35,644 nt of DNA from Elusimicrobiota bacterium (GCA_030637365.1 DAOWGR010000007.1:1-35644), one strand, 5' to 3'; counted from the stretch's first letter, positions 2,185-26,050 are shown. The notes: generated by a model from the sequence alone, not told the origin. Numbers and translations: made by a program.

Positions 2185-2298
2185 GCAGGTTAAGATTAAG
2201 ATTAAGGCTGAGGTTGAGAACGGCAAAATTAGGCGAATAAATTTAAATGGATGGGTTTTAGTTTTTTTCTTGGTCTTGACCTAAATCTCAAACTGCAG
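2185..2298 (+). repeat. Intergenic hexamer-repeat hairpin element, copy A (rplC-rplD spacer)
   Basis: The left arm gcaggttaagattaagattaaggctgagg pairs with the right arm tcttggtcttgacctaaatctcaaactgc. Of 29 positions, 20 are Watson-Crick, 5 are G.U and 4 are mismatches. It starts 7 nt after the rplC stop and ends 16 nt before the rplD ATG. Confidence 0.6.
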
Positions 2299-2313
2299 TA
2301 AATAGGGATATTT

Positions 2314-2964
2314 ATGGAAACAAAACTTTTAAGCATTAACGGGCAGGAAGTGGGGAAATGTGAAATTCCCAAGGAAATATTTTCAAGGAAAGTGGACGCT
2401 CATTTTCTTCATGAGTTGGTTAAATATTATCTTGCCAATAAAAGAAGGGGCACGGCTCAAGCTAAAAAAAGAAATGAAGTGTCCGGAGGCGGGAAAAAGC
2501 CGTGGAAGCAAAAAGGCACCGGCAGAGCCAGACACGGAAGCAATCGCTCTCCTTTATGGAGAGGCGGCGGTGTTGTTTTTGGTCCGCGCGCTCATTCTTT
2601 TAAACTGGATATGCCAAAGACAAAAAGAAGAGCGGCTTTATTGGAAGCTCTTTCGTCCAAATACGCGGATGGCGCGATAACGGTTGTTGATAATTTGGAT
2701 ATCACGGAAGCCAAAACCAAGCAGGTTAGGGGAATTTTTAAAGCGCTGAAAATTGAATGCAAAAAAGTTTTATTTGTTTCCGATGAGCCCAATGATAAGT
2801 TCTCTCTCGCCTCAAGAAATATGAAAGAAGTTTCATGGACTTTGGCGAGAAATATAAATGCTTATGAAATTTTAAGGGCTCGCGCGATTATTTTTACCAT
2901 AGCGGGAATGAAAGATTTAACGGAGTTTTTAAATCCTAAAGCAGAGAAAGTTTCAGCTAAATAA
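2314..2964 (+). CDS. rplD: 50S ribosomal protein L4
   Basis: Carries the motif GGGKKPWKQKGTGRARHGSNRSPLWRGGGVVFGP and sits in canonical order after rplC. Confidence 0.96.
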   Translation: METKLLSINGQEVGKCEIPKEIFSRKVDAHFLHELVKYYLANKRRGTAQAKKRNEVSGGGKKPWKQKGTGRARHGSNRSPLWRGGGVVFGPRAHSFKLDMPKTKRRAALLEALSSKYADGAITVVDNLDITEAKTKQVRGIFKALKIECKKVLFVSDEPNDKFSLASRNMKEVSWTLARNINAYEILRARAIIFTIAGMKDLTEFLNPKAEKVSAK

Positions 2965-2992
2965 TTTGTTAGAGATGTAACGGAGGATGGTC

Positions 2993-3289
2993 ATGAGTAA
3001 ATCTATTTTAAGAGTTCTTTTGTCTCCTATTTTGAGCGAGAAGAGCGTTACTTTGAAAGATAAAGAAAACAGATATTCTTTTAAGGTTGACACAAAAGCC
3101 AATAAGATTGAGATAAAGAAAGCCGTGGAAACGGTGTTTAAAGTTAAGGTTGAAAAGGTTCGCACGCTTAACTCTCACGGTAAAATGCATAGAGTTGGAA
3201 GATATCAGGGCCTGCGTTCGGATTGGAAAAAAGCGTTTGTAACCGTTAAAAAGGGTCAGAAAATAGATTTAACTTCTTTGCCTAAGTAA
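2993..3289 (+). CDS. rplW: 50S ribosomal protein L23
   Basis: L23-like sequence LSPILSEKSVTL...FKVDTKANKIEIKKAVETVFKVKV. The ORF opens at ATG 2987, but the GGAGG SD (2982-2986) is properly spaced (6 nt) only for ATG 2993. Confidence 0.93.
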   Translation: MSKSILRVLLSPILSEKSVTLKDKENRYSFKVDTKANKIEIKKAVETVFKVKVEKVRTLNSHGKMHRVGRYQGLRSDWKKAFVTVKKGQKIDLTSLPK

Positions 3290-3373
3290 TTAGAGTTCGG
3301 AGTTTACCATGGGATAAACCCATGGTACCCTGATGTATATCAGGGTAGAGTTGAAAGAAGAGAGGAGTTTTTT

Positions 3374-4207
3374 ATGCCAGTGAAATCATTTAAAGCGTAT
3401 ACACCGTCAAGAAGAACCATAACCGTTAGTGATTTTTCGGATATTACAAGAACCGTGCCTGAAAAAAGTCTTTTGGTGGGACTTAGGAAAAAGGGCGGTC
3501 GAAATAATACGGGAAGAATCATGGTCAGGCACCATGGCGGAGGACATAAGAGAAGCTATAGGATAATAGATTTCAAAAGAAATAAGTCGGGCATTCCCGC
3601 GAAAGTGTTTTCCATAGAGTATGATCCCAATAGAAGCGCCAGAATCGCTCTTCTCCATTATGTGGATGGGGAAAAGCGCTATATCATAGCTCCCAATGGT
3701 TTGAAAGTCGGTGAAAAGCTTATGAGCGGTCCGGACGCGGATATTAAAGTCGGAAACGCGCTGCCTCTTTCCGCCATTCCCGAAGGAACTTTTATACACG
3801 CTATAGAAATGCAGCCGGGAAGGGGCGCTCAATTCGCGCGCTCTGCCGGCACTCAATCTCAGCTTATGGCTAAAGAGGGCAAATACGCTTCAATTAAGAT
3901 GCCTTCCGGCGAAATAAGAAAAGTTTTGAAAAAATGTTTTGCCACCATCGGTCAGGTGAGTAATACCGAGCATAATACCATAACCATAGGAAATGCCGGA
4001 AGAAACAGGCATCGCGGCATAAGGCCCACTGTCCGAGGCACCGCCATGAACGCTTGCGACCATCCATTGGGCGGAGGCAGAGGTCGTTCAAAGGGTAACA
4101 ATGTTCCTCGGTCTCCATGGAATCAGCCGTCAAAAGGTTATAAAACCAGGAATCCGAGTAAGATTTGGAGTTGGATGATTGTTCAGGATAGAAGAAAAAA
4201 GAAATAA
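3374..4207 (+). CDS. rplB: 50S ribosomal protein L2
   Basis: Carries motifs [28 protein letters not shown] and [12 protein letters not shown], in canonical order. Confidence 0.97.
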
Positions 4208-4290
4208 AAACAGAGTAAGAAACGGCGTAAATACGGGAAGACGGTGATAAGTTGATACGGAGACCCAAAGAGTAATAAGGAGAAAAATTT

Positions 4291-4575
4291 ATGAGCAGGT
4301 CGTCAAAAAAAGGTCCTTTTGTGGATATAAAGCTTCTCGCGAAAGTGCAGAAGATGAATCCGGAAGAGAAAAAAATTATTAAAACATGGTCCAGAGCTTG
4401 CACTATTGTTCCCGAGTTTATCGGACACACATTCGCGGTGCATAATGGCCGTAAGTTTTTACCGGTTTATGTTACCGACAGAATGGTTGGACACAAGCTT
4501 GGAGAATTTTCATTTACCAGATTGTTCAAAGGTCATGGCGTGTCTCACACTAAGGGAACCGCTGATTTGAAATAA
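4291..4575 (+). CDS. rpsS: 30S ribosomal protein S19
   Basis: Carries [12 protein letters not shown]...[44 protein letters not shown]. An AAGGAG SD lies upstream. Confidence 0.97.
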
Positions 4576-4690
4576 GGAGGATAGTAAATTGGAGAAACAA
4601 GAAGTAAGAAGCAAGATTTATATGGAGTTCCGTATTTATCTTCCGCCAATGAAGCGTGGCGGGTCCGTCGAAGAAGTAATGGCGGAGATT

Positions 4691-4718
4691 TCTGACCTCT
4701 GACCTCTGAATTACTGAT
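4691..4718 (+). repeat. Four tandem heptamers (tctgacc tctgacc tctgaat tactgat) immediately upstream of rplV
   Basis: Read directly from the sequence. The repeat ends 6 nt before the rplV ATG (4725), which has no recognisable SD. Confidence 0.5.
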
Positions 4719-4724
4719 TTAACT

Positions 4725-5081
4725 ATGGAAGCAAAATGCTATTTGAAATATCAAAGATACGGAACAAGAAAAGTAGGCCAGGTTTTAACTAAGGTTAAGG
4801 GAAAAACTTTATATGAGGCCGAGCAAATATTAAAATTTATATCCAAGCGTCCATCAGATATAGTTCACAAAGCCGTGATGTCGGCCGGGGCTAATTTATC
4901 GGTTAAACTCGGCAAAAAAGTGGATTTAAAGTCTGTTTGGATAACAACCGCGTATTCGTGCATGGGCTCTATGAAGGCTTTGAGGCGTTTTAACGCGGGA
5001 CCAATGGGCAGAGCGATGCCGTTTAAAAGAAGCATGTGTCATATAACGGTTATAGTGTCCGATTCTAAAGAGGTTAAATAA
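4725..5081 (+). CDS. rplV: 50S ribosomal protein L22
   Basis: L22-like sequence (YQRYGTRKVGQVLTKVKGKTLYEAEQILKF...RAMPFKRSMCHITVIV). It sits between rpsS and rpsC. No SD is present. Confidence 0.93.
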   Translation: MEAKCYLKYQRYGTRKVGQVLTKVKGKTLYEAEQILKFISKRPSDIVHKAVMSAGANLSVKLGKKVDLKSVWITTAYSCMGSMKALRRFNAGPMGRAMPFKRSMCHITVIVSDSKEVK

Positions 5082-5082
5082 T

Positions 5083-5817
5083 ATGGGTCAAAAAATTCAT
5101 CCTAAAGGTATTCGTCTGGGGTATATTCAAGACTGGAGTTCCAGATGGTTTTCTCCCAAGCATATGCCGGAATTGATTCGTGAAGATTATGAAATAAGAA
5201 ATATGATTAAGGACAGATTTCATTTGGCTTCCGTTAGCCGGGTTGATATTGAAAGAGCCGGTTCTTTTCTTAAGCTTACCATTCATACCGCCAGGCCCGG
5301 AATTGTCATAGGCCGAAGAGGCATTGATATTGAAAATCTTAAAAAAGATATTGAAAAATTAACTTCCAGAAAATTTTTTGTGAATGTCGCGGAAATAAAA
5401 AAACCGGAGCTTGATGCCATGCTTGTCGGTCAGTCCATCGCTTTTCAAATAGAAAAAAGAATCGCTTATAAAAGAGCGATGAAAAGGGCTATGGAAAGAA
5501 CCATGCAAAGCGGAGCTTTGGGGATAAAAGTTATGGTCTCCGGTCGTTTGGGAGGCAATGAAATAGCGCGCAGGGAATGGCTGAGAAAAGGAAGAGTTCC
5601 TCTTCAGACTTTTTCCGCGGATATAGACTATGGTTTTGTGGAAGCCAATACGGTGATGGGTAAAATAGGCGTAAAGGTTTGGATATTTAGAAAGCTTGTT
5701 TTCGCCAAAACCAGAAAGGATTTGGTAAATCAACTTAAAGAGTTTGAAACTCAGGAATCATCCGTTGACGGCAATATCGGCGGAGCAAAGCAAACGGAAG
5801 AAGCCAAGAAAGAATAA
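5083..5817 (+). CDS. rpsC: 30S ribosomal protein S3 (acidic C-terminal tail)
   Basis: Carries [23 protein letters not shown], a KH domain, and [13 protein letters not shown]. It starts 1 nt after the rplV stop. Confidence 0.97.
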
Positions 5818-5843
5818 ATTTTTGCATAAGGAGTGTGAGTTTT

Positions 5844-6257
5844 ATGTTAATGCCTAAGAGAGTAAAGTATAGAAAACCTCAAACAAAGCCGAAGATAAAA
5901 GGAACGGCTAAGGGGGGAACGGAGATTTTATTCGGACAGTACGGTTTAAAGGCCGTTCAGCCCAGATGGATAACTTCAAGACAGATAGAGTCTTGCCGTA
6001 TCGCCATAATGAGACGGGTAAGAAAAAAAGGGAAGATGTGGATAAGAATATTTCCGGATAAATGCATTACAAAACATCCCGCCGAAACAAGAATGGGAAA
6101 AGGAAAAGGCGCGCCGGATCATTGGGTCGCTGTCGTTAAGCCCGGAAGAATAATGTTTGAGCTGGAAGGTTTGAGCCTTGAAGAGGCCAAAGACACTATG
6201 ATCAAAGCCAGCGCGAAGCTTCCGATAAAAACCAAGTTAGTTGTGAGAGAAGATTAA
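5844..6257 (+). CDS. rplP: 50S ribosomal protein L16
   Basis: The canonical N-terminus [13 protein letters not shown] begins at ATG 5844, with an AAGGAG SD 10 nt upstream. The track ORF opens at an upstream GTG (5835). Confidence 0.96.
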
Positions 6258-6259
6258 TT

Positions 6260-6490
6260 ATGAAGAGAAAAGACAAAGAAAACTTAAAAAACATGTCATC
6301 CGCAGAGCTTGAGTCTCATATTAGAGATTTGGAGAAAAAACTTTTTCAAATGAAATTCAAAAGAGTTTCGGCTCCGCTTGAAAATCCTTTGGAAATAAGA
6401 AGCATTAGGAGAGAAATGTCCATGGTGCGGACATGGCTGAAGGAAAAAGAAACAGCTAAAGCTAAAACAGAGGTAACTGCTAATGGATGA
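6260..6490 (+). CDS. rpmC: 50S ribosomal protein L29
   Basis: Small helical protein (LKNMSSAELESHIRDLEKKLFQMKFK) in the canonical position. It starts 2 nt after the rplP stop. Confidence 0.93.
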   Translation: MKRKDKENLKNMSSAELESHIRDLEKKLFQMKFKRVSAPLENPLEIRSIRREMSMVRTWLKEKETAKAKTEVTANG

Positions 6491-6764
6491 GAACAAAGAA
6501 AAGACGGCGGAAAGAAATAAAAGAAAAACGGTTCAGGGAATCGTGGTGTCTGATAAAATGAATAAGACCCGCGTTGTCAGTGTTGAAAGAATTATTAAGC
6601 ATCCTTTTTATAAAAAGACGCAGAGAAGGCATTCAAAATTTTACGCTCATGACGAAGCAAATGAATCATTGAGCGGCGATTTGGTCGAGATTATGAGCGT
6701 TAAACCTCAATCAAAACTTAAAAAATGGAGAATTACGCGAATTATCACCAAAGCAAATAAGTAA
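6483..6764 (+). CDS. rpsQ: 30S ribosomal protein S17
   Basis: Carries TVQGIVVSDKMNKTRVVSVERIIKHPFYKK...HDEANESLSGDLVEI. It overlaps rpmC by 8 nt. Confidence 0.95.
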   Translation: MDENKEKTAERNKRKTVQGIVVSDKMNKTRVVSVERIIKHPFYKKTQRRHSKFYAHDEANESLSGDLVEIMSVKPQSKLKKWRITRIITKANK

Positions 6765-6850
6765 TCTTTTTGCGGATTTCGGAGTAATATCCGGACAGGC
6801 GAGTTTGCGGTTGCAGGCAAAATAAGCGTATTTGATTTTGGAGAATTACT

Positions 6851-7219
6851 ATGATAATGTTAAGAACAATATGCAATGTGGCGGATAATTCGGGAGCCAG
6901 AAAAGTGCAGTGCTTTAAAGTCCTCGGCGGAAGTGTCAGGAGATACGCTTCTTTAGGGGATATTTGCGTCTGCTCCGTTAAAGATGTTTTGCCCAATACC
7001 GCTATTAAAAAGGGCGAGGTTGTTAAAGCGGTGGTCGTGAGAATAAAAAAAGAAAAAAGACGCAGAGACGGCTCGTACATAAGATTTGATGATAATGCCG
7101 TATGTATTTTGGACGCCAATGGCGATCCGAAAGGCACGCGCGTTTTTGGTCCTGTGGCGCGAGAGCTTAGAGCCAAGAATTTTCTTAAAATAGTTTCATT
7201 GGCGCCGGAAGTAATTTAG
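6851..7219 (+). CDS. rplN: 50S ribosomal protein L14
   Basis: Carries [25 protein letters not shown]...[12 protein letters not shown], in canonical order. Confidence 0.97.
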
Positions 7220-7242
7220 CGTTTCTCTAAGGATAAAATATT

Positions 7243-7554
7243 ATGTTTAAATTAAAAAAGAAGGACAAAGTTGTGGTTATAGTCGGAGCCGATAAGGGCA
7301 AAAAAGGCGAAATCAAGCAGGTTTTCCCGGTTAAAAACAAAGTCGTTGTTATCGGCGTGAATATGCGCACAAAGCATAAAAAGCCGGGAAAAGATAAGCC
7401 GGGCGGAATACATAAGGTTGAAGGGCCCATAGACGCGTCCAATGTCAAAATTATATGCCCAAAATGCGATAAGGGAGTAAAAGTGAAATTCTCCAAAATG
7501 CAAACGGGAGATAAGGTTCGCGTTTGTCGCAAATGCGGCGAGTTGATGATTTAA
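7243..7554 (+). CDS. rplX: 50S ribosomal protein L24 (variant with a C-terminal four-Cys zinc-ribbon-like motif)
   Basis: KOW motif KKDKVVVIVGADKGKKGEIKQV. The C-terminus reads CPKC-x20-CRKC. Confidence 0.94.
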   Translation: MFKLKKKDKVVVIVGADKGKKGEIKQVFPVKNKVVVIGVNMRTKHKKPGKDKPGGIHKVEGPIDASNVKIICPKCDKGVKVKFSKMQTGDKVRVCRKCGELMI

Positions 7555-7579
7555 TTGGTTTAATAAAGGTGGTTTTAAG

Positions 7580-8182
7580 ATGACTAAAGAAAAAGTGAAA
7601 AAAGAAAACGGCGGTGAAAAATATATCTCCAGATTAAAAGATGAATTCAATAAAAAAGTGCTTTCGGCTTTAATGAAAGAATTTAAATATTCATCTTCCA
7701 TGGCGATACCGCGCTTGGATAAAATCGTAATCAATATGGGTATAAATGAAGCCAAGGAAAATATTCAAGCTTTGGATAAAGCTAAAGATGATTTGGCTTC
7801 GGTGACGGGGCAGCTTCCTCAAATAAGACGGGCTAAAGTGTCAATTTCAAATTTTAAGCTCAGAGAAGGAATGCCCATAGGAGTAAAGGTTACTCTTAGA
7901 GGCGATAGAATGTATGATTTTTTTGATAAGTTCGTTTCCATCGCGGTTCCGAGAATAAGAGATTTTCAAGGGTTTAATCCGAAAGCTTTTGATGGAAGCG
8001 GAAATCTTAATATAGGGCTTAAAGAGCATCATATTTTTCCGGAGATTGATATTGAAAGGTCTCCCAAAGCGCAGGGAATGAATATAACTTTTGTCACTAC
8101 CGCGAAAGATAATAAAATGGCGCAGGTATTGCTTAAGTATCTTGGCATGCCTTTTGAGAAGCCTAAAAAAATAAAAGGATAG
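7580..8182 (+). CDS. rplE: 50S ribosomal protein L5
   Basis: Carries IPRLDKIVINMGINEA, FKLREGMPIGVKVTLRGDRMYDF and NIGLKEHHIFPEI. An AAGGTGG SD lies upstream. Confidence 0.97.
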   Translation: MTKEKVKKENGGEKYISRLKDEFNKKVLSALMKEFKYSSSMAIPRLDKIVINMGINEAKENIQALDKAKDDLASVTGQLPQIRRAKVSISNFKLREGMPIGVKVTLRGDRMYDFFDKFVSIAVPRIRDFQGFNPKAFDGSGNLNIGLKEHHIFPEIDIERSPKAQGMNITFVTTAKDNKMAQVLLKYLGMPFEKPKKIKG

Positions 8183-8220
8183 ATTGTTTATCCGCAGAAC
8201 TTACTAAGGAGTAAATAATT

Positions 8221-8406: not shown

Positions 8407-8552
8407 AAAACAGTTCGGAGTTGAGAGTTTAGAGAAAAAACTCAGCTTGGCAGGAAGCAGTAAGAAGCAAAAAGATTTAAATTACGGGAAGTTTATTAAA
8501 ATATTTTGAGGCTTAATTCTTTGCAAGAAGACAGGCTTCTAAGAGGTGAGAT

Positions 8553-8960: not shown

Positions 8961-9032
8961 TATAGGTTACAGGAGATATGCAACAGGTCTCAGGTTGCAA
9001 TAAAAAAGTTTTAAAACTAAGAGGATAAAATT

Positions 9033-10056: not shown

Positions 10057-10106
10057 AAATTTGAAGCATAATGGCCTTTCGTATCCCGCTGTAGAGGGAT
10101 AAGCGC

Positions 10107-10223
10107 GAGGGGTAAAAAACGCATTAAGTATAAACCCCCCGTAGATTTAATTCCCCGCTAATTCCAGAGGAATCTAAACGCGGGAAATAGTAAAATCTAA
10201 GCACGGAGGGGTAAAAAACGCAT
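10107..10223 (+). repeat. Two copies of an 18-nt direct repeat (gaggggtaaaaaacgcat) 99 nt apart within the 192-nt rplR-rpsE spacer
   Basis: The copies at 10107-10124 and 10206-10223 are identical. Their flanks are also similar (taagcgc / taagcac). The second copy forms aaaaaacgc-ata-gcgtttttt, a 9-bp hairpin at 10213-10233. Confidence 0.6.
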
Positions 10224-10248
10224 AGCGTTTTTTAAAGGAGAATTATAA

Positions 10249-10803
10249 ATGATAGCTAAAGACGCTAAAGAAACTAAAATGGATAATGTCGCGGATAAGA
10301 CGAAAAAATCCAAAGACGGAGTAACTTTTAACACTGATCTTCTTGCTGAAGAAAAAAGCATTGTTGTTACCATAAACAGGGTAACTAAAGTGGTTAAGGG
10401 TGGAAAAAGATTTTCTTTTAACGCGCTTGTTGTGGTAGGCGATAGCAATGGCTCAGTGGGTGTGGCTGTCGGGAAATCCAATGAAGTTCAGCCCGCCATT
10501 ATGAAAGCTACGCAAGCCGCTAAAAAAAACATGTTCACCTTTCCGTTATTGGAATCCAGTATTCCTCATGAAATAATAGGGAATTTTGGCGCGGGAAAAG
10601 TTTGGATGAAGCCCGCCGTTTCCGGAACGGGTCTTATAGCCGGCGGAGGAGTCAGAGCGGTTCTTGAGGCGGCCGGAGTTAAAAATGTTCTTACTAAAAA
10701 TCTTGGAACCAGAAATTATTTTAACAGTGTCTACGCCACGATGGATGCTTTGGAAAATTTAAAAAGCAGGGAAGAAGTTTTAAAGCTGAGAGGCGTTCAA
10801 TAA
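10249..10803 (+). CDS. rpsE: 30S ribosomal protein S5 (N-terminal ~30-aa extension)
   Basis: Carries [39 protein letters not shown] and [19 protein letters not shown]. An AAAGGAG SD lies upstream. Confidence 0.97.
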
Positions 10804-10806
10804 ATT

Positions 10807-10875
10807 ACGGCAGATTAAGATTGAGGTTAAGAAAAAAGAAAAACTCTGAACCTTAATCTTGGCCTTGACCTGCAG
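10807..10875 (+). repeat. Intergenic hexamer-repeat hairpin element, copy B (rpsE-rplO spacer, where rpmD normally sits)
   Basis: Positions 10810-10831 pair with 10852-10873: 15 Watson-Crick, 5 G.U and 2 mismatches. The first 19 nt (acggcagattaagattgag) are identical to copy C. It starts 4 nt after the rpsE stop and ends 20 nt before the rplO ATG. Confidence 0.7.
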
Positions 10876-10894
10876 TTAAACAGGAGAAATTATC

Positions 10895-11413
10895 ATGGTA
10901 AGTTTAAACAATTTATGCCCTAAAACTGGTTCAATACATAGGAAAAAAAGACTTGGTTGCGGTAGAGGTTCGGGACACGGGGAAACAAGCACGCGCGGAC
11001 AAAAGGGCCAGAATTCAACCTCCGGCGGTTCCAAAAGAAATGGTTTTGAAGGCGGACAGATGCCTCTGTTGAGAAGAATTCCTAAAAGCGGTTTCAATAA
11101 TACCCGGTTTAAAACGAAATATACATGGGTTAATATCGGTATTTTTGAAAAGTTTTTTAGCGGCGTCAAGGATATAAATTCCGAAGTGTTAAAATCCAAA
11201 GGCTTGATAAAAAGGCAAGGCCTTTTAAAAATTTTGGGCACAGGAGCTTTGAAAAAATCATTTAATGTTACAGCTCACGCGTTTTCCGCGTCAGCCAAAG
11301 AAAAGATAGAAAAGGCCGGCGGGAAAGCCGTTTTAATTGAAGTTGCCGCAAAGCCCCAAAAAGCAAAAAGCAAAAGGCAAGAAATGAGAGCCAAGAAGTT
11401 CGTTTCCAAATAA
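10895..11413 (+). CDS. rplO: 50S ribosomal protein L15
   Basis: Carries KKRLGCGRGSGHGETSTRGQKGQNSTSGG...GFEGGQMPLLRRIPK. Confidence 0.96.
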   Translation: MVSLNNLCPKTGSIHRKKRLGCGRGSGHGETSTRGQKGQNSTSGGSKRNGFEGGQMPLLRRIPKSGFNNTRFKTKYTWVNIGIFEKFFSGVKDINSEVLKSKGLIKRQGLLKILGTGALKKSFNVTAHAFSASAKEKIEKAGGKAVLIEVAAKPQKAKSKRQEMRAKKFVSK

Positions 11414-12822: not shown

Positions 12823-12916
12823 GAAAAAATAGAAGTCAGAAGCAAGAAATCAGAAAGATTCAGTAAAGTAATTCGCTGTTTAAATTTAATATTTGGGCAT
12901 TTTGAGGAATTTAAAA

Positions 12917-14958: not shown

Positions 14959-15333
14959 ATGGCAAGGATAGTAGGATTGGATTTACCAAGAAACAAACGG
15001 ATAGATGTTGCGTTGACTTATGTTTTCGGGATAGGCGATTCTTTGGCTAAAAAGATTTTAAAAGAGCTGGGAAATCAGGTGGACCCTTCAACAAGAGTCA
15101 GGGATCTTACCGAAGAGCAAACAGGTCTTATTAATTCGCTAATCATTAAAGAATACAGAGTTGAGGGTGAATTAAGAAGGGAAGTGTCTCAGAATTTAAA
15201 AAGATATATCGAGATAGGCAGTTATAGAGGGATAAGACACAGAAGAAGTCTTCCTTCTCGCGGACAGAGAACAAAAACAAACGGCCGGACTCGTCGTGGA
15301 AGAAGAAAAACCATAGGGTCGGCGACTAAATAA
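14959..15333 (+). CDS. rpsM: 30S ribosomal protein S13
   Basis: Carries [26 protein letters not shown]...[26 protein letters not shown]. Confidence 0.97.
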
Positions 15334-15382
15334 AAAAGCAAACAATTTTAGTTGTACCCGCAGTTAACGGAGGTTTTTTAAT

Positions 15383-16528: not shown

Positions 16529-17512
16529 ATGACTCAAGATTTTTCAAAGCAGCTTCACATACCGGAGAGTATTACCGTAGATGAAAAAACCGCGACCAAT
16601 AGCTATGCTAAATTTATAGCGGAGCCTTATGAAAGCGGATACGGGCATACCGTGGGTAATTCCATAAGAAGAGTCATGCTTTCAAGTTTGGATGGCGCGG
16701 CTATAGTTGCGGTTAGAATTAAAGGAGCCACCCACGAATATTCAACAATCAAAGGCGTTCAAGAAGATGTCATTAATATACTTTTGAATTTGAAAAAACT
16801 CAGGCTAAAAATGACCGGCGACGGCCCCGAGACGCTTTATGTTTCGCTTAAAGGAAAAAAGGAAGTTAAAGCTTCCGATATACGGGAAAATGCCAATATT
16901 AAGATTGTCAATAAGGATCTTGTGATAGCGCATCTTGAATCGGGAACGGAATTTGAGGCCGAATTTGAAGTTGCCAGAGGAGCGGGATATCTTACAAGCG
17001 AAGAAATAAAAGCCAGAATAAATTTGCCGATGGAATTTATTCCCATGGATTCTCTTTTTTCTCCCATACAAAAAGTTCATTATTTGGTGGAAAACGCGAG
17101 AGTCGGTCAAAGAACCGATTATGACAGGCTTGTGATTGAAGTGTGGACGGATGGGACCATCACGCCCGTTAAGGCGATTAATCAAACGGCCGCTTTGCTT
17201 AAAAAGTCTTTATTGCCTTTTCTCGGCGGAAAAGATAAATCCGGAGATAGTTCCAAGGTTCGGGCCACTGAAAAAGAATCTCAAAAAACGGATAGCGATT
17301 CGAGTATGTTTGAACAGGGAGTTGAAATGATTGAACTTTCGTCTCGCGCGTCAAATTGTTTAAAAGTTGCCGGCATAAGAACAATCGGAGAGCTTGTCCA
17401 TAGAACGGATGAAGATTTGCTGGCGGTTAAGAATTTCGGCAAAAAGTCCCTTGACGAAATAAAGGAAAAATTGGTGGAGATGGGCTTAGGTCTTGGCATT
17501 AAGGCCGAATAA
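16529..17512 (+). CDS. rpoA: DNA-directed RNA polymerase subunit alpha
   Basis: The NTD carries FIAEPYESGYGHTVGNSIRRVMLSSL. The CTD carries IELSSRASNCLKVAGIRTIGELVHRTDEDLLAVKNFGKKSLDEIKEKL. It has the canonical position. Confidence 0.97.
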   Translation: MTQDFSKQLHIPESITVDEKTATNSYAKFIAEPYESGYGHTVGNSIRRVMLSSLDGAAIVAVRIKGATHEYSTIKGVQEDVINILLNLKKLRLKMTGDGPETLYVSLKGKKEVKASDIRENANIKIVNKDLVIAHLESGTEFEAEFEVARGAGYLTSEEIKARINLPMEFIPMDSLFSPIQKVHYLVENARVGQRTDYDRLVIEVWTDGTITPVKAINQTAALLKKSLLPFLGGKDKSGDSSKVRATEKESQKTDSDSSMFEQGVEMIELSSRASNCLKVAGIRTIGELVHRTDEDLLAVKNFGKKSLDEIKEKLVEMGLGLGIKAE

Positions 17513-17515
17513 ATA

Positions 17516-17614
17516 ACGGCAGATTAAGATTGAGATTAAGAACAGCAATGTAAATAATTAAAATCAATATGTTTTTTAGTTTTTCTTAATCTTAACCTAA
17601 GCCTTGAACTGTTG
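17516..17614 (+). repeat. Intergenic hexamer-repeat hairpin element, copy C (rpoA-rplQ spacer)
   Basis: The outer stem 17516-17528 / 17603-17615 has 9 Watson-Crick, 3 G.U and 1 mismatch. The inner stem 17530-17542 / 17583-17595 has 12 Watson-Crick and 1 G.U. The right arm carries a ~7-nt bulge, about one extra hexamer. The element starts 4 nt after the rpoA stop and ends 16 nt before the rplQ ATG. Confidence 0.7.
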
Positions 17615-17629
17615 TTAACGGAGATTGAT

Positions 17630-20024: not shown

Positions 20025-20030
20025 AAAACA

Positions 20031-20510
20031 ATGAAATTTATCGGGAATATATTTGTTTTTATCATTGTAAGCGTGGCTTATTGGCTGTTTAGTAATCATT
20101 TTTCATTTTTTCACATAGCTCCGAATATGCTTTTTACGGCGGCGATAAGTTTGGCCATACTTTTAAAGCCCGTAACAGCCCTCAGTTTTTGTTTTTTTTG
20201 GGGCTTGTATATGGATATGATGGGTATTAACGCTTTTGGCGCTTACGCTTTGATTTATACGCTTATGTGCTACGCGGTTCACATCAGTAAAAAGCGTTTT
20301 GATTTTGATATGCCGATTCCTCAAATCGTTCTTGTTTTTATATTGTCGGTTTTGGTGTTTTTATTTCATCAGATGTTATCTTTGATATTTACGGATGTTA
20401 ATCCGTTGCGATTAAAGGTTTTATTCGTGGAGCCGCTTGTCAATTCTTTATTGATGCCTTTTGTGTTCGCGATTTTCCATTATTTGAAAAGGAAACTGAA
20501 AATCCTATGA
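20031..20510 (+). CDS. mreD: Rod shape-determining protein MreD
   Basis: 159-aa polytopic membrane protein between mreC and mrdA. It overlaps mrdA by 4 nt. The call rests on context and topology. Confidence 0.8.
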   Translation: MKFIGNIFVFIIVSVAYWLFSNHFSFFHIAPNMLFTAAISLAILLKPVTALSFCFFWGLYMDMMGINAFGAYALIYTLMCYAVHISKKRFDFDMPIPQIVLVFILSVLVFLFHQMLSLIFTDVNPLRLKVLFVEPLVNSLLMPFVFAIFHYLKRKLKIL

Positions 20511-22300
20511 TTGAAAAGCAGTTGTCGCATAATCGGCTGAATTTTTTGAAAATTTCGGTTTATTTTCTGAGTTTTCTTTTCGTATTAAAAATCGTTAATC
20601 TTCAAATATTAAGGCATGACCATTATAAAGGCGTCGCGGAAAGAAATAAAACCAAAATTATTTCTCAAACGGCTTCCAGGGGAAGAATATTCACGAAAGA
20701 TAAGGTTCTTGTCGCCGGCAGCAGGCCTTCTTTTTCCCTTGTTTATTTTCCTATCGGAGGCATATCGGCGCAATACGCTGAATATCTTGCCGGCAGTCTT
20801 TCCAAATATTTAGATGTTTCTTTGGAGGAAATTAAAAAAAAGCTTTTCCTTGCGGTAAAAAGAGGAACTCCCGTAAGAATCGCGGAAAATTTATCCGATC
20901 ATAGCATGTTTTTGATTAGTGAGCTTAAAACCGTTTATCAGGGAATTAATATTATTACCGAGGCTCGGAGATTTTATCCAAAGAATAGTTTTTTAAGCCA
21001 TTTAATCGGATATATCGGTAAAATCAGTCCGGGGGAATGGAAGTATTTGCGCAACGATAAAAATTACAGTATGGATTCATATATAGGTAAAACGGGCGTT
21101 GAAAAAAGATTTGAAAAAGAGCTGAAGGGAAAAGACGGCGGTGTTTATTTGGAAGTTGATTCCAAGGGCAGGCTTATGCAAATTTTGGAGGGCAAGAAGA
21201 GCGTTAGAGGTTCAAATATTTATTTGACCATAGATTCCAAGGTTCAGGTCGCGGCTGAAGAAGGGTTAAGGGCGACGGGCAGCGGCAGCGGAGCCGTTGT
21301 GGCCGTTAATCCCCGCAATGGCGCTATTCTGGCTTTTGCTTCCTTGCCGGATTTTGATTTAAACGCTTTTGTTCGGAGAGCCGGCGCCAATGGAAACCTT
21401 AAAAACATTAAAGAATTTAATTATGCCACGCAAGGCACTTTTCCACCGGCTTCAACATTTAAAATTATAGTCGCGGCCGCGGCGCTTGAAACGGGAAAGA
21501 TTGATTTGAAGGAAAAAATTTTTTGTCCGGGATATTTTGACGCGGGCAGCAGAGTTTTTAAATGCTGGAAAAAAGAAGGACACGGCTTGACGGATTTTTA
21601 TGAAGGCATGACTCATTCATGCGATGTCTACTATTATAATATCGGAATCAGGACAGGTCCTTTGAATATTGAGAAATACGCCAAAATATTCAGGCTTGGA
21701 GTTCCCACCGGCATCAATATGCCGCATGAAAAATCCGGAAATGTATTTGGACCTTCAAGAAGAGCAAAGAAAAAAAGTTACTGGTTTATAGGGGATACTC
21801 TTAATTTAAGCATAGGACAGGGAGAAATGCTGGTTACTCCCGTTCAGATGGCGCAGGTTATAGCCGCCGTGGCAAATAAAGGCAAGTTTTGGCAGCCTTA
21901 TTATATTGATGAAGTGGTTAATTTGAAGGGTTATAAAACATTTGAATCAAAGCCAAAACTTTTAAGTAATATAAATTTAAAGAAATCCACATGGATTCAT
22001 TTAAGAGAATCTTTAAAAAAGGTTGTTTTACAGGGAACCGGTTATTCCGCCAGAATAAAAGGCGCGGATGTTTATGGTAAGACGGGAACCGCTCAGAATC
22101 CTCATGGCGAAGATCACGCGTGGTTTGTGGCTTTCGCCCAAATAGACGACAATCCTTCGGAAATCGCGGTTTGTGTTTTGGTTGAGCATGGAGAGCATGG
22201 CTCTTCGGCCGCGGCGCCCATTGCCAGACGCGTTATTGAAGCTGCGCTCAGGCACAAGTTGACGAAGCCGCCTGTGCGACGGCAGGTAGCAGGGCAATAG
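20507..22300 (+). CDS. mrdA: Penicillin-binding protein 2 (elongasome class B transpeptidase)
   Basis: It has an N-terminal TM anchor and a PBP dimerisation domain. Transpeptidase motifs are STFK (PPASTFKII), SCD (THSCDVYYY) and KTGTA. It lies in mreBCD/rodA context. Confidence 0.94.
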   Translation: MIEKQLSHNRLNFLKISVYFLSFLFVLKIVNLQILRHDHYKGVAERNKTKIISQTASRGRIFTKDKVLVAGSRPSFSLVYFPIGGISAQYAEYLAGSLSKYLDVSLEEIKKKLFLAVKRGTPVRIAENLSDHSMFLISELKTVYQGINIITEARRFYPKNSFLSHLIGYIGKISPGEWKYLRNDKNYSMDSYIGKTGVEKRFEKELKGKDGGVYLEVDSKGRLMQILEGKKSVRGSNIYLTIDSKVQVAAEEGLRATGSGSGAVVAVNPRNGAILAFASLPDFDLNAFVRRAGANGNLKNIKEFNYATQGTFPPASTFKIIVAAAALETGKIDLKEKIFCPGYFDAGSRVFKCWKKEGHGLTDFYEGMTHSCDVYYYNIGIRTGPLNIEKYAKIFRLGVPTGINMPHEKSGNVFGPSRRAKKKSYWFIGDTLNLSIGQGEMLVTPVQMAQVIAAVANKGKFWQPYYIDEVVNLKGYKTFESKPKLLSNINLKKSTWIHLRESLKKVVLQGTGYSARIKGADVYGKTGTAQNPHGEDHAWFVAFAQIDDNPSEIAVCVLVEHGEHGSSAAAPIARRVIEAALRHKLTKPPVRRQVAGQ

Positions 22301-22334
22301 GTGGCAGGTGTGTAGGAGACAGGTAGATTAAAAA

Positions 22335-23672
22335 ATGTTTTTACAAAAATCAAAAACAAAGAAAAGTAAAATGGACTGGGTTTTTTTTGGCGTTGTCGCG
22401 ATATTATTGGCGATAGGAACAATATCTATTTTTTCTTCGGTTGTCGCGCTTCCCAATCAGCTGAAAATAGTAAGAACGCATCTTTTGGCTCTTCCAATCG
22501 CGTTTACCGCTTTTTTCGTTATGTGGAATTTTAATTATCAAATTTTTCAAGATCAATGGAAAATTGTTTATTCCGTCATGATTATCGCTTTAGTTGGAGT
22601 ATTGTTTTTCGGTATTGCGGATAAGGGAGCTCAATCGTGGTTTAGGCTGCCCTTTTTTTCCGTGCAGCCTTCGGAATTTGTAAGAATAGGTTTAATACTT
22701 GTTATGGCGAATTATCTGGATAAAAATATCGGCAAGATAAAAGAGTTTTCAACTGTTTTGGGAGTTTTATTTATATCGGCCCCGATTTTTTTCTTGCTTA
22801 TTAAGCAGCCCGATTTTTCGGCTATTATGACAATGCTGCCCATAGTTTTAGTAATGCTTTTTTGCGCTGGCGCGAGATTGTTCCATATTTTTTTAATTAT
22901 GGGTTTTGCTTTTATAACCGTCTTATTGCCGATTTTGTGGACTATGATAGATTTAAATCCGGAACTCATGCAAAATTCCTTTATTAATTTCTTTTACGGT
23001 CTTTCGCGCGTTAATTGGCATTTGGCCGCTGTTTTTGTGATTTTGATTTTTTTGGGATACGCGTTATGGTTTATATTTTCAGAGTTTTATCGGAATATAT
23101 CAAAGATTTATTTTATTGGCATAGTGGCGGTTATAACATTGGGTTTATTTTCGGGCATCGCGGTGAAAAAGCAAATGAAACACTATCAGCAGAAAAGATT
23201 GGAGGTGTTTCTTTCTCCCAATACCGATCCTAAGGGAGCGGGATATAATTTAATTCAGGCTCAAGTGGCGATAGGTTCGGGCGGACTTATGGGAAAGGGA
23301 GTTTTTTCCGGGACGCAGGCAAAATTGGGTTTCGTTCCCGAGAGGCATACTGATTTTATTTTGGCGGTAATAGGCGAAGAAATGGGATTTGTCGGTATGA
23401 TATTGGTTATGGGTTTATATGTGTTTTTAATGAGAAGAGTTGTAAATACGGCGTATATGGCCAAGGATAGGTTTGGTTATTTGGTAAATTCCGGCATATT
23501 TGGAATGTTTTTGGTTTATTTTAGCGTTAATTTCGGCATGCTTTTGGGTTTAAATCCTGTCGCGGGCGTGCCTTTGCCGCTGCTGTCTTACGGCGGTTCA
23601 AATTTGGTTTCCACAATGATAGCGATAGGAATAACGCAATCCATTTATTCCAGAAGGTTCGCGTTGACATAG
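22335..23672 (+). CDS. rodA: SEDS-family peptidoglycan glycosyltransferase RodA
   Basis: FtsW/RodA/SpoVE motifs are present: GSGGLMGKG, PERHTDFILAVIGEEMGFVG, PLPLLSYGGSN. It follows mrdA. The start is uncertain between 22335 and 22371. Confidence 0.93.
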   Translation: MFLQKSKTKKSKMDWVFFGVVAILLAIGTISIFSSVVALPNQLKIVRTHLLALPIAFTAFFVMWNFNYQIFQDQWKIVYSVMIIALVGVLFFGIADKGAQSWFRLPFFSVQPSEFVRIGLILVMANYLDKNIGKIKEFSTVLGVLFISAPIFFLLIKQPDFSAIMTMLPIVLVMLFCAGARLFHIFLIMGFAFITVLLPILWTMIDLNPELMQNSFINFFYGLSRVNWHLAAVFVILIFLGYALWFIFSEFYRNISKIYFIGIVAVITLGLFSGIAVKKQMKHYQQKRLEVFLSPNTDPKGAGYNLIQAQVAIGSGGLMGKGVFSGTQAKLGFVPERHTDFILAVIGEEMGFVGMILVMGLYVFLMRRVVNTAYMAKDRFGYLVNSGIFGMFLVYFSVNFGMLLGLNPVAGVPLPLLSYGGSNLVSTMIAIGITQSIYSRRFALT

Positions 23673-23741
23673 AGAAACAGTGCGTAAGCGCGAAAGCGCG
23701 GAAGAAACAAACAGAAAGAAGCAGTGAGAACTACGGAAATT

Positions 23742-24440
23742 ATGAATAAAATTAAAGATATGGATAAAGTTATTTCTCCAAAATACAGATTGCGAATTAA
23801 ATTTTCCCGAACGGGTGAAGCCGTAAATATAACTCATTTGGAGCAAATGAGAGAAATTCGCAAAGGAGTTGTTTTATCCGAGATTCCCGTTTTTAAGGCC
23901 AATAATAAAAAGGCTTTTCCTAAAATTTCGTTTGGTCCGGCGATTAGCATGGGATATGAAAGCTTATGCGAGTTTGCTGATATTTATCTGACGGAATTGG
24001 CGAAAGAAAATAATATAAAAGCGATATTTGATAAAATGGAGATTTCCGGCATTAATTTTGTTTCGGCTAAAAGGATTCCTTTATTGTTTCCATCGCTGGA
24101 ATCAAGCGTAAACGCGGTAGAATATGAAGTGAGAGGAGAGTTTTTGGAAGATTTTTCTCAAGATAAAATCAAGCGGGCTCTTTTAAAGAGAGAGTTGATT
24201 TTTGAGAAAATTAAAGACGGTAAAACAGCGAAAAAAATAAATTTCCGGCCGCTTATAATTAAAATGGAGCATCACAAAGAAGCTGGCTTGGTGATTTTGG
24301 TTTTAAGGATTAAACCGGGTTTTAATATCAAGCCTGAAGAAGCCGTTAAATTTATTGCCGGAAGTTCGGCTAAAATAACGGGTATTTTAAAAAAACAACT
24401 CTACTGGATTAATTCCGGCGGGGAATTCGAGGTTTTCTAA
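23742..24440 (+). CDS. DUF2344 / TIGR03936-like (radical SAM-linked) protein
   Basis: YRLRIKFSRTGEAVNITHLEQMREIRKGV...FPKISFGPAISMGYESLCEFADIYL matches the DUF2344 N-terminal pattern. The start is uncertain among GTG 23724, ATG 23742 and ATG 23760. The stop lies 1 nt before the RNase gene. Confidence 0.7.
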   Translation: MNKIKDMDKVISPKYRLRIKFSRTGEAVNITHLEQMREIRKGVVLSEIPVFKANNKKAFPKISFGPAISMGYESLCEFADIYLTELAKENNIKAIFDKMEISGINFVSAKRIPLLFPSLESSVNAVEYEVRGEFLEDFSQDKIKRALLKRELIFEKIKDGKTAKKINFRPLIIKMEHHKEAGLVILVLRIKPGFNIKPEEAVKFIAGSSAKITGILKKQLYWINSGGEFEVF

Positions 24441-24441
24441 T

Positions 24442-25935
24442 ATGAATAAGAGATTTACAAATTCGTCTAACAAAAAATCGGCATCCCAGACAAAAGCCAA
24501 GTTTAAAAAGGAAATTTTCGCCAATACTTCTTTTGAAGAAACAAGAATTGCCATTATGGAGGATGATAATTTGGCCGAGCTTTTTTGGGAACGGCGCGGG
24601 ACGGCCAATATTGTGGGTAATATTTACAAAGGCACGGTGGAAAATGTTCTTCCCGGAATATCAAGCGCGTTTATAAATATAGGGCTTAATAAAAATGCGT
24701 ACATATATATATCGGATGTATTGGGCAGTCACAGAGACGGTATTGAGAGGCTGTTGAAAAGAAATCAGCATGTAATGGTGCAAGTTTCCAAGGACGCTAT
24801 CGGAACCAAGGGCATGAAGGTTACCATGGATATTTCTTTGCCCGGTCGTTATTTGGTTCTTACTCCCGTTCAAGAATTTGTGGGCGTTTCCAAGAATATA
24901 GATAATCATGAAGAGCGCAAAAGGCTTAGTGAGATTATAAAAAAAATCGCCAAATCAAATGATTTGGATAAAAAAGGCTGTATTGTAAGAACGGAAGCGG
25001 AAGGCGCCAGTGAAAAAGAGCTTGAAAGAGAGCTTAAATATCTTATGCGCACTTGGGAATCAATAATGAAGCGTTTTGAATCATCGCGTTCTCCTCATGT
25101 TTTGCATAAGGATATGGATTTAACTCTTCAAATGGTTAGAGATATTTTATCCGATGAAGTTTCCATATACATGCTTAATAATAAAGAGGATTATAATAAT
25201 GTTTTGGATCTTGTTAAGAAAATTTCGCCCGAATTAAAGGATAGAATTAGATTTTATAATAATAAAACGTCCATATTTAAGGCTTTTGATATTGAAAAAT
25301 CGATTACGGAATTAAGAAAAATAAAGATTCCTTTGCCTAATGGCGGCAGTATAATAATACAGGAGGCGGAGTCTTTATGCGCGATAGATGTTAATACGGG
25401 GCGTTTTACCGGTTCGCGTTCTCAAGAAGAGACAGTGACATTGACCAATGTGGAAGCCGCGCGCGAGGTGGCGCGCCAATTGCGTCTTAGAAATATCGGG
25501 GGAATAGTGGTCATAGATTTTATTGACATGAAGAGGGCGTCAAACCGCCATCGCATAGTGAGCACTCTCGAGAAAGCTGTTAAAAGAGACAGGGCTAAAA
25601 TAAGAATTTTGCCGATAACTCGCCTTGGTCTTGTTGAAATGACAAGAGAAAGAAAAAGAGAGAGTACGGTAAGTCTTCTTACCGAGGAATGTCCCGAATG
25701 CCACGGTTCGGGCAGAGTTCTTTCTTCCGAGAGCATAAGAATAAAAATACAGCGTGAAATTCAGAATTTAACTTTAGGCAGGCCAGGCGGAAATTTAAGG
25801 ATTATAGTGCATCCGATGATACTTGAAATACTAAAGAAGAAGCAGCATATAATTGAGAAAAATGTGCATAGAAGCGTGAAATTATTTTCCGACCCGATGC
25901 TTACATGGGAAGATTATAAATTGATACTTGAATAA
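24442..25935 (+). CDS. rng: Ribonuclease E/G family endoribonuclease (RNase G-like)
   Basis: S1 domain GNIYKGTVENVLPGISSAFINIGLNKNAYIYISDV. The catalytic region carries CAIDVNTGRF and RLRNIGGIVVIDFIDM. The Zn-link CPECHGSGRV is present. Confidence 0.93.
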   Translation: MNKRFTNSSNKKSASQTKAKFKKEIFANTSFEETRIAIMEDDNLAELFWERRGTANIVGNIYKGTVENVLPGISSAFINIGLNKNAYIYISDVLGSHRDGIERLLKRNQHVMVQVSKDAIGTKGMKVTMDISLPGRYLVLTPVQEFVGVSKNIDNHEERKRLSEIIKKIAKSNDLDKKGCIVRTEAEGASEKELERELKYLMRTWESIMKRFESSRSPHVLHKDMDLTLQMVRDILSDEVSIYMLNNKEDYNNVLDLVKKISPELKDRIRFYNNKTSIFKAFDIEKSITELRKIKIPLPNGGSIIIQEAESLCAIDVNTGRFTGSRSQEETVTLTNVEAAREVARQLRLRNIGGIVVIDFIDMKRASNRHRIVSTLEKAVKRDRAKIRILPITRLGLVEMTRERKRESTVSLLTEECPECHGSGRVLSSESIRIKIQREIQNLTLGRPGGNLRIIVHPMILEILKKKQHIIEKNVHRSVKLFSDPMLTWEDYKLILE

Positions 25936-25936
25936 A

Positions 25937-26050
25937 ACGGCAGGTCAAGATTGAGGTTGAGGTTAAGAACGGCAAGGAATATAAAAGCAATTAAACTCAG
26001 TGTATATTTTTAGGTTGTTCATAGTCTTGATCTTAATCTTGACCTGCCGT
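25937..26050 (+). repeat. Intergenic hexamer-repeat hairpin element, copy D (best-paired copy; rng-amidase spacer)
   Basis: A perfect 16-bp stem pairs acggcaggtcaagatt (25937-25952) with aatcttgacctgccgt (26035-26050). It extends through 18 more positions (25953-25970 / 26017-26034): 11 Watson-Crick, 6 G.U and 1 mismatch. The element starts 2 nt after the rng stop and ends 16 nt before the amidase ATG. Confidence 0.8.

Follow-up and report, generated by a model that had tools for sequence, protein, structure and literature searches.

An Elusimicrobiota bacterium contig of 35,644 nt (GCA_030637365.1, DAOWGR010000007.1:1-35644), from now on referred to as the window, carries four long hairpins assembled from degenerate RTTRAG hexamers, each located between a stop codon and the ribosome-binding site (RBS) of the next gene. 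With slightly better than even confidence, we consider them to be copies of a dispersed non-coding palindrome of the MITE (miniature inverted-repeat transposable element) or REP (repetitive extragenic palindrome) type, which survives where a self-contained mRNA hairpin leaves the gene junction working. On our best reading of their sequence, they would belong to a catalogued, uncharacterised class of Geobacter-type hexanucleotide repeats, while transcribed intergenic repeats such as REP, ERIC and Correia elements appear, by analogy, to be their nearest functional counterparts.

Sequence build and placement of the hairpins

An earlier sequence-only reading of the window had located the four copies, A to D, and described their shared ends; both were confirmed by sequence, pattern counts and a repeat search (Table 1). 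The left-end pattern CGGCAGRTYAAGATTGAG has five matches in the window at up to three mismatches, compared with 0.04 expected, and the right-end pattern has three compared with 0.00 expected, while the repeat search recovered the left family, the right family and the inverted-repeat arms. The elements are 69-114 nt long with 25-36% G+C, and all four possess inverted arms bounded by terminal inverted repeats, (A)ACGGCAG...CTGCCGT(T), which are perfect over 9 nt in D. Left-arm units carry at most one mismatch each and the right arms (CTYRAY) are more degenerate. Arm lengths vary among copies by 6- and 12-nt gaps, in line with the description of arms that differ by whole hexamers. It should be noted that RTTRAG is AGRTTR in a different phase and satisfies a TCTYWA (complement TWRAGA) unit.

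Table 1 Hairpin copies and related features of the window. Energies are in kcal/mol; G.U pairs were counted in minimum-energy folds.
Feature	Position	Strand	Upstream stop	Downstream ATG	Left-arm RTTRAG units	Sense fold (z)	Antisense fold	G.U sense/antisense	Remarks
Copy A	2185..2298	+	L3, 2176-2178	L4, 2314	5	-28.9 (-2.6)	-15.4	11/2	Without ACGG left tip; covariance model 71.6 bits (+) vs 53.2 (-)
Copy B	10807..10875	+	S5, 10801-10803	L15, 10895	3	-20.8 (-4.4)	-17.7	5/2	Short derivative with small A-rich loop
Copy C	17516..17614	+	rpoA, 17510-17512	L17, 17630	3	-25.0 (-4.2)	-16.3	6/2	Covariance model 89.2 bits
Copy D	25937..26050	+	RNase G, 25933-25935	amidase, 26066	4	-56.7 (-11.0)	-35.1	11/2	Most intact copy, 47 pairs
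Decayed fifth copy	15334..15373	+							S13-S11 spacer: AAAAGCA..TTTTAGTTGT..CCGCAGTTAAC, then Shine-Dalgarno GGAGG; arms gone
Right-flank motif GTTAAC + Shine-Dalgarno GGAGG	26050..26059	+							Abuts hairpin D; equivalents at 17615-17623, 10876-10885 and 15364-15373

A covariance model was built from 11 copies and the window was searched with filters off. Only copies A-D were found, the + strand scoring 17-34 bits above the - strand, together with a weak match to the decayed fifth copy at 15332-15368 (10.1 bits, E=6). The right end of this decayed copy is the string ccgcagttaacgg, correctly recognised by the sequence-only reading as a family end and misplaced by it at 15368-15380 instead of 15358-15370. 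Two other proposed fragments are not family members: acggcag at 1160-1167 is part of a leader motif that precedes L3 and is shared with a relative as a conserved sequence, and the fragment at 22281-22325 reduces to acggcaggt at 22279-22287, located mostly inside the end of the PBP2 gene and without a covariance-model match. On sequence grounds, the decayed copy and the four hairpins form one repeat family. The combination of CTGCAGTTAA followed by GGAG is also found in other Elusimicrobia genomes (L122, L102).

By Pfam, the flanking genes encode L3 and L4 (A), S5 and L15 (B), RpoA and L17 (C), and RNase E/G and Amidase_3, an N-acetylmuramoyl-L-alanine amidase (D). All four pairs are co-directional and each copy has the orientation of transcription. 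Measured at all four sites (A to D), the elements start 6, 3, 3 and 1 nt past the stop codon, and distances of 16, 20, 16 and 16 nt separate their ends from the ATG, so the precise placement described previously holds as geometry. Its significance is weakened, since spacers of element-free relatives measure 1-26 nt (with the exception of rpoA-L17 in L122, 62 nt), and a tolerated insertion can thus only fall between the stop codon and the Shine-Dalgarno (SD) sequence. Judged from these spacers, the stop/SD placement appears to be largely a survival filter. At copy A the SD is already present in the empty site of the relative L119. The copy noted for following the RNase G gene is indeed adjacent to it, this being one of four unrelated contexts. 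The same geometry is found for hexamer hairpins in other phyla, for example at LemA-TPM (Geomonas paludis) and PrkA-DUF444 (Eubacteriales metagenome-assembled genome, MAG), which start up to ~6 nt past the stop and end ~16-27 nt before the next start.

Modelled energies for opening the RBS with the element kept or deleted are 4.5 and 4.4 kcal/mol for A, 3.6 and 4.2 for B, and 4.1 and 3.6 for C; the corresponding values for D are 6.9 and 4.2, the test window overlapping the stem. For A and C, the modelled cost with the element is if anything below that with a shuffled insert. These models agree with each element being structurally self-contained. We propose that copies dispersed to further sites within this Elusimicrobia lineage and that, in tightly packed operons, survival would be limited to those in the gap of a few nucleotides separating a stop codon from the following SD. 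Each copy would be co-transcribed with its operon, and the mRNA is predicted to fold on itself into a G.U-rich hairpin of 23-47 bp, the base of which would bring the stop codon and the next RBS back together, so that ~100 extra nt would be kept from pairing with the RBS and from exposure as naked untranslated RNA. Such a clamp would allow insertions to be tolerated even in ribosomal-protein operons. If this is correct, a highly expressed, translationally coupled operon absorbs only self-folding inserts between stop and SD. REP, ERIC and Correia elements suggest by analogy that a copy might further act as a barrier to 3' exonucleases, or be cut by RNase III or RNase E/G and so segment the long transcript; a processing or stability role is possible on this analogy. 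For the annotation of Elusimicrobia and other MAGs, it is useful to know that such spacers add to apparent 'intergenic' length and may disrupt assemblies or mislead predictors of operons and small RNAs.

Other signals were sought within the elements. A terminator scan revealed no terminator-like site at any of the four, where stems are followed by GTTAACGGAGG, and the G+C-rich stem with U tract of an intrinsic terminator is absent from every copy. A promoter scan returned promoter-like strings inside A, B and C at chance frequency. A sigma-70-like string occupies the same place in A, C and D (2214-2243, 17530-17558 and 25957-25985), consisting of the last left-arm TTGAGR, 17-18 nt, and then TAAATT, AATAAT or TATAAA in the loop. 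Its shared position could, by analogy with Correia elements, indicate an element-borne promoter, such strings occurring at chance frequency across the window. A peptide reading of the arms, (Leu-Arg)n from TTR-AGR or (Ile/Val-Lys/Glu)n from RTT-RAG, was rejected as the frame relative to the upstream stop differs among copies. Mimicry of SD and anti-SD by the arms (GAGGU and ACCUC) was rejected as well, copy C having no GAGG and AGAUUA units dominating elsewhere.

Junction occupancy in relatives and dispersal of the family

By its SecY and RNase G homologues, the window can be assigned to Elusimicrobiota, and its orthologous clusters from relatives were compared. The spacers of the window measure 135 (L3-L4), 91 (S5-L15), 117 (rpoA-L17) and 130 nt (rng-amidase), with an element at each. 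Copies C and D show no internal change in L117 and L118 (99.6-99.9% identical to the window). In L119 the L3-L4 spacer is 26 nt long and empty, copy A being absent at 94% SecY identity. Its S5-L15 spacer (123 nt) contains a diverged orthologue of copy B (L119:9264-9359) whose fold is nearly lost (-13.2 kcal/mol, z = -1.5), and its rpoA-L17 spacer (108 nt) a hairpin of another family. More distantly, S5-L15 and rpoA-L17 measure 1 and 11 nt in L120 (SecY 81%), and L3-L4, S5-L15 and rpoA-L17 measure 9, 1 and 3 nt in L121 (SecY 78%). In L122 (SecY 77%), S5-L15 measures 12 nt and the 62-nt rpoA-L17 spacer is without the element; RTTRAG hairpins are instead found at L36-S13 and S13-S11, with the full S13-S11 element at 11061-11165. 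At the D junction, the more distant L146 (RNase G 88% at the amino acid level) retains a diverged RTTRAG copy, L146_D, in its 124-nt spacer, while the closer L145 (RNase G 89%) carries a hairpin of the other family in 109 nt; L145 also has this other family, plus a remnant, in its 158-nt rpoA-L17 spacer. The replacement at the C junction of L119 and the C and D junctions of L145 is a different purine/pyrimidine tandem-repeat hairpin, and the one in L145 folds better antisense (-40.2 compared with -28.5). Between D and L146_D one change, C-G to U-A, is compensated. This mixed occupancy indicates that the family is sporadic with fast turnover and is not conserved at these junctions.

A second family of intercistronic hairpins, with a purine-rich 5' arm (AGAAGYAAGAAGCAAGA or AAGAGGCAAGAGG) and a pyrimidine-rich 3' arm (TCTGACCTCTGACCTCT), is found in the window at 4576-4724 (S19-L22), 8407-8552 (S14-S8) and 12824-12854, as well as at L119:15995-16090 and L145:11497-11600. 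In sister lineages, it fills junctions that carry RTTRAG copies in the window.

Terminal inverted repeats are a trait of MITEs, and so is dispersal in multiple copies whose presence varies between relatives; the window has 4-5 copies in its 35.6 kb. Copies A, C, D and L146_D share a non-repeat interior (AAGAACGGCAA.. and TTTTAGKTTTT) at 62-70% pairwise identity, orthologues being no closer than paralogues, and near-identical copies are found at unrelated loci of one genome (L122:11061-11165 and L102:7244-7348; L006 and L078). The shared interior and the near-identical copies together argue for one dispersed family. At L085:7487-7875, ~300 nt of other repeats are nested in the loop. A long family member of ~190 nt is located at L126:1470-1710, with its right arm and SD-like AAAAGAGG tandemly duplicated.

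Scans of a genome collection and of metagenomes identified RTTRAG arrays in Elusimicrobiota, Geomonas, Geobacter, Citrifermentans and Pelotalea and further in Kiritimatiellae, Verrucomicrobiota, Bacteroidales, Planctomycetota and Omnitrophota. The covariance model matches Geomonas, Citrifermentans and Bacteroidales copies, with E ~1e-8 to 1e-9 for Geomonas and Bacteroidales, and (G/A)CAG precedes 27 of the 68 arrays not selected by the search pattern. In viral contigs, RTTRAG and three permuted-unit controls each returned at least ~120 array matches. Many pattern matches were rejected as an unrelated conserved MreB coding motif, GCAGATCAAGATTGAGATTGG (AEQIKIEIG), in Acidobacteriota and other groups; among genome contigs these false positives include L004, L012, L017-L019, L025, L033 and L043, and the motif is a false-positive source for any DNA-pattern census of the RTTRAG repeat.

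Two Kiritimatiellae MAGs show arrays in other settings. In GH20 (L002, L013, L021, L047, L071, L073, L077, L079, L086, L112), single-armed arrays lie within mosaic intergenic repeats, in the order stop codon, small G+C hairpin (GCTGGCnnnGCCAGC and similar), AG, (RTTRAG)4 and more small hairpins; two arrays adjoin convergent genes on the 3' side, by crude gene calls. In STCSWMC_188 (L008, L029, L091, L110), arrays are located inside a conserved unit, GACAATCGGCGACGAGCAG(ATTAAG)n..ACGAGAAGGTCTCCCCAACAGAACTGCCATGCGCCC, whose opposite strand has an open reading frame (ORF) start, ATGGCAGTTCTGTTGGGG.., followed by (Leu-Asn)n. Judging by this frame, the STCSWMC_188 repeat may be coding.

Strand bias, covariation and alternative readings

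The folds of Table 1 bear out a repeat family of long in-operon hairpins that fold better and contain more G.U pairs in sense than in antisense. They depart from the sequence-only reading in their figures, with 11, 5, 6 and 11 sense G.U pairs instead of 4-6 each and predicted stems of 23-47 instead of 22-34 pairs. Its further claim, that the structure is selected in the mRNA, does not follow, as G.T wobbles would equally stabilise a hairpin in the top-strand DNA. Four-fold sites are keto-rich in the sense strand (T 1419 > C 1098, G 1008 > A 710), and the sense G.U excess is inseparable from effects of strand composition, common ancestry or a hairpin in single-stranded DNA. The compensatory changes proposed as a check for RNA selection did not exceed the shuffled expectation either: among the 11 copies, 90.8% of cells pair compared with 90.7% with partners shuffled, one pair has changed on both sides compared with a shuffled mean of 1.9, and RNAalifold reports 0 compensatory pairs. 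The pairing register is specific, slid controls being 18-58% paired, and covariation does not exceed what the conserved palindromic consensus and column composition provide. In other genomes, where Pfam was used to verify gene strands, sense and antisense are the better-folding strand about equally often: sense is favoured in L020, L053, L066, L074 and L146_D, antisense in L045 (the LemA-TPM copy of Geomonas paludis), L011 and L006, and the strands are equal in L122, L102 and L049. A plain MITE had been expected to show random orientation with target-site duplications; the favoured strand is indeed mixed and no duplication can be defined. On these predicted folds, RNA-level selection is possible.

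These results bear directly on the main alternative, possible though rather doubtful, that the hairpins are a dedicated intercistronic RNA element, namely a site selected for processing by RNase III (or RNase E/G), a stabiliser of 3' ends or a translational-coupling device. Consistent with it, the sense strand folds 3-22 kcal/mol better than antisense in A-D, L146_D and L020, antisense folds contain only two G.U pairs each, and the predicted stems would be long enough for RNase III, whose substrates have ~20 bp or more of double-stranded RNA. RNase E prefers RN↓WUU, which left-arm AAG↓AUU resembles, and modelling a ribosome on the stop codon raises the RBS opening cost by 1-1.5 kcal/mol (A, B and D). 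A hairpin of some type is moreover kept at C and D across the clade, and in related systems RNase III cleaves Correia elements and an RNase E site becomes exposed through ERIC insertion (PMC10969869, PMC2649163). A dedicated element is nevertheless difficult to reconcile with the lack of covariation, with junctions that are element-free at 77-81% SecY identity and a copy A that is absent at 94%, and with the decayed fold of the L119 B copy. The replacement hairpin of L145 has its better fold in antisense, antisense also folds or scores better in Geomonas (L045, L011) and L006, and the keto-rich sense strand accounts for part of the G.U excess.

Several observations weigh against a tolerated, dispersed palindrome. 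Ungapped arm comparisons within the window yield 24 G.U compared with 5 A.C in sense, exceeding the ~1.3-1.4:1 expected from 4-fold-site composition, for copies that are not independent of each other, and L146_D folds far better in sense (-31.2 compared with -14.3). Together, this G.U excess and the L146_D fold hint at selection on the transcript. Some hairpin is present at C (window, L119, L145) and D (window, L145, L146) in every clade member with the junction recovered. Among the single-armed RTTRAG arrays of the Kiritimatiellae MAG GH20, all 13 that lie within 80 nt of the end of an upstream gene are in sense, by crude gene calls. D and L146_D are 84% identical in aligned columns, with 54.5% at 4-fold sites; under the same scheme unrelated spacers reach ~0.56, a baseline equalled by B and its L119 orthologue (0.57), and with orthologues no closer than paralogues (0.62-0.70) the identity test cannot separate constraint from family consensus. 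Lastly, no target-site duplication can be defined at the four sites or in the one filled/empty comparison, and no transposase or autonomous partner was found in the window or between the array pairs of L068 and L099, where the intervening genes are ordinary.

Direct repeats at these sites are inconsistent, with AAC or TAAC flanking C and D, TTA flanking B and none at A, and the filled/empty pair (A compared with L119) is highly diverged. A putative insertion of GGCAG...CTGCCGTTAAC between '..AAC' and the SD without duplication, in the style of IS200/605, would fit the four junctions and the empty A site; such an insertion between '..AAC' and GGAGG would rebuild neat stop-SD-ATG junctions. Without duplication or transposase, hairpins might also have grown in place, slippage and template switching having expanded short stop/SD palindromes independently at each junction. 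Copies differing by whole hexamers, sister lineages with different repeat units at the same junction, the tandemly duplicated right arm in L126 and the commonness of degenerate hexamer arrays of arbitrary unit in the four viral scans would all be expected from growth in place. Non-mobile growth explains neither the non-repeat interior and termini shared by A, C and D nor near-identical copies at unrelated loci of one genome, and the (G/A)CAG tip of arrays outside the search-pattern selection likewise speaks against it, leaving it only a slim chance of being correct.

The breadth of the arrays, which directly follow stop codons and mostly have a complementary partner arm reaching to the next SD, raises the thought that they are functional intercistronic RNA elements across phyla (Elusimicrobiota, Desulfuromonadia, Kiritimatiellae, Bacteroidales, Omnitrophota), which we regard as unlikely. 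A hexamer-periodic RNA-binding factor could read the array, or a clamp opened by the ribosome could couple termination to the next initiation and shield the spacer from Rho and nucleases. If so, the sense arrays of Kiritimatiellae and the G.U bias of Elusimicrobia would both reflect transcript selection. Elements acting on the transcript would represent a widespread, unstudied means of segmenting or coupling polycistronic mRNAs, and the hexamer unit that these distant phyla share has been noted only in a 2010 supplement.

Related repeats and other features of the window

Scanning the full window against Rfam with E up to 1 returned chance matches only, the sole match at the elements being a miRNA precursor on D (26.4 bits compared with a gathering score of 72, E = 0.42), and literature string searches for the RTTRAG repeat itself returned nothing relevant. 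The statement that this is not a described element thus stands with respect to Rfam and needs qualifying with respect to the literature, as the unit has been catalogued in Geobacter bemidjiensis (PMC2996986). Thirty-two arrays, Gbem_R6001-R6034, are listed there as 'hexanucleotide repeats' with the consensus [TCTYWA]n TCT (Aklujkar et al. 2010, PMC2996986, Table S6, Fig. S6), mostly as 3' of gene X and 5' of gene X+1, i.e. between co-directional genes, at junctions such as dnaN-recF, murG-murC, accB-accC, pgk-tpi and ribBA-ribH. Six -/+ array pairs are 25-130 nt apart (R6005/6, R6009/10, R6016/17, R6022/23, R6031/32 and R6033/34), and the authors state that the implications of the repeats 'remain to be elucidated' (PMC2996986). 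TCTTAA and TCTCAA correspond to right-arm CTTAAT and CTCAAT, their complement to left-arm AGATTA and AGATTG, and the -/+ pairs have the purine-arm-first hairpin arrangement seen in the window. In contrast to the window elements, these arrays are from another phylum and include many TCTTTA-type and single arrays; the likeness rests on the published list, and the publication describes neither termini, interior nor structure (PMC2996986).

In Geobacter metallireducens, paired tandem-repeat sites with members on opposite strands have been described as four classes of 'global regulator' sites, with IHF/HU suggested, including one at proB-proA where Geobacter sulfurreducens has a different repeat (Aklujkar et al. 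2009, PMC2700814). Similar to the window elements, these are inverted pairs of 3-5 short tandem repeats with variable spacing, intergenic and in part within operons, and the repeat swap between the two species mirrors the C and D junctions. Their class 3 unit, MTYCTGA, is similar to the arm sequence CCTCTGA in the second hairpin family of the window. They differ in having 5-9 nt units of other sequences and in being read as putative DNA sites for IHF/HU. It could accordingly be supposed that the window elements are DNA-level arrays of phased hexamers on both strands, bound by nucleoid or 'global regulator' proteins of the IHF/HU type. The single-armed arrays of Kiritimatiellae, showing that pairing is not always needed, and the conservation of the hexamer consensus across phyla would suit protein binding, as would the paired opposite-strand repeats themselves. 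We nonetheless give it a chance about as slim as that of growth in place: the cited papers contain no experimental support, arm transitions keep G.U pairing on one strand, a signature of nucleic-acid folding, a location within operons and directly behind stop codons would hardly suit transcription control, and inspection by eye showed no IHF consensus.

REP hairpins shield upstream mRNA against 3' exonucleases. Like the window elements, REP/BIME and ERIC repeats of enterobacteria are transcribed intergenic palindromes often located right past stop codons within operons, and BIME-like mosaics are seen in Kiritimatiellae, where the arrays are combined with small G+C hairpins. REP elements differ in being 20-40 nt long and G+C-rich, with a GTAG tip and RAYT transposases. 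Membership in the REP/RAYT class was rejected for the window elements given their size, base composition and ACGGCAG tip. ERIC has a 127-bp consensus and a TA duplication, and neither REP nor ERIC has tandem-hexamer arms or sequence similarity to the window elements. In phage T7, irregular 20-30 bp RNase III hairpins separate the early genes, and cleavage leaves a stabilising 3' stem on the upstream segment. These hairpins are likewise intercistronic in a polycistronic mRNA, whereas they are unique conserved sites with proven cleavage and do not form a dispersed repeat family. For ERIC, exposure of an RNase E site has been described (PMC10969869). Correia elements (CREE/NEMIS) of Neisseria are co-transcribed palindromic MITEs of ~100-150 nt whose hairpins are bound or cleaved by RNase III and which can carry promoters (PMC2649163, PMC10969869). 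Long hairpins, predicted to be co-transcribed in the window, are common to both, and the TTGAGR-17-TAAATT/AATAAT/TATAAA strings of A, C and D, at chance frequency, recall Correia promoters. The 26-bp terminal inverted repeat, TA duplication and IHF site of Correia were not found in the window elements. Correia/CREE membership was rejected on the missing TA duplication and on a terminal repeat showing no likeness in an informal comparison. The Geobacter uraniireducens MITE Chunjie (Chen et al. 2008), as presented in PMC10969869, has inserted into an operon with operon structure kept and has many partial and size-variant copies; in that account it differs from the window elements in its 178-235 bp, clear terminal inverted and direct repeats, and in not being hexamer-built.

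Upstream of L3, the motif GGCAGCGCCCTATAGAAAGGTCGGCCTTAAATTCCATCTTTCTGCGGGC at 1163-1212 of the window is conserved in the pre-L3 spacer of L121 and is located inside a 460-nt structured spacer (-110.7 kcal/mol) without an Rfam match; given this conservation, the region may be an uncharacterised L3-operon leader. S10 is absent upstream of L3 in 291-1338, where tblastn with the L121 S10 protein found nothing and the ORF at 291-878 encodes an NADPH-dependent FMN reductase, so the S10 operon starts at L3 here. The strongly structured 192-nt L18-S5 spacer (10057-10248; -58.4 kcal/mol on the + and -56.2 on the - strand) contains two direct copies of GGGGTAAAAAACGCAT and ends in a perfect hairpin, AAAAAACGCATAGCGTTTTTT. 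L117 (99.9% identical) differs from the window at 23 positions, six of which fall within 25 nt (30738-30762) at the start of a 302-nt spacer (30737-31038), which folds better on the + strand (-73.4 compared with -51.8). Compared with L118 (99.6% identical), a 30-nt length difference is located at 23547-23580 in the RodA/FtsW gene, resulting in proteins of 445 and 435 aa.

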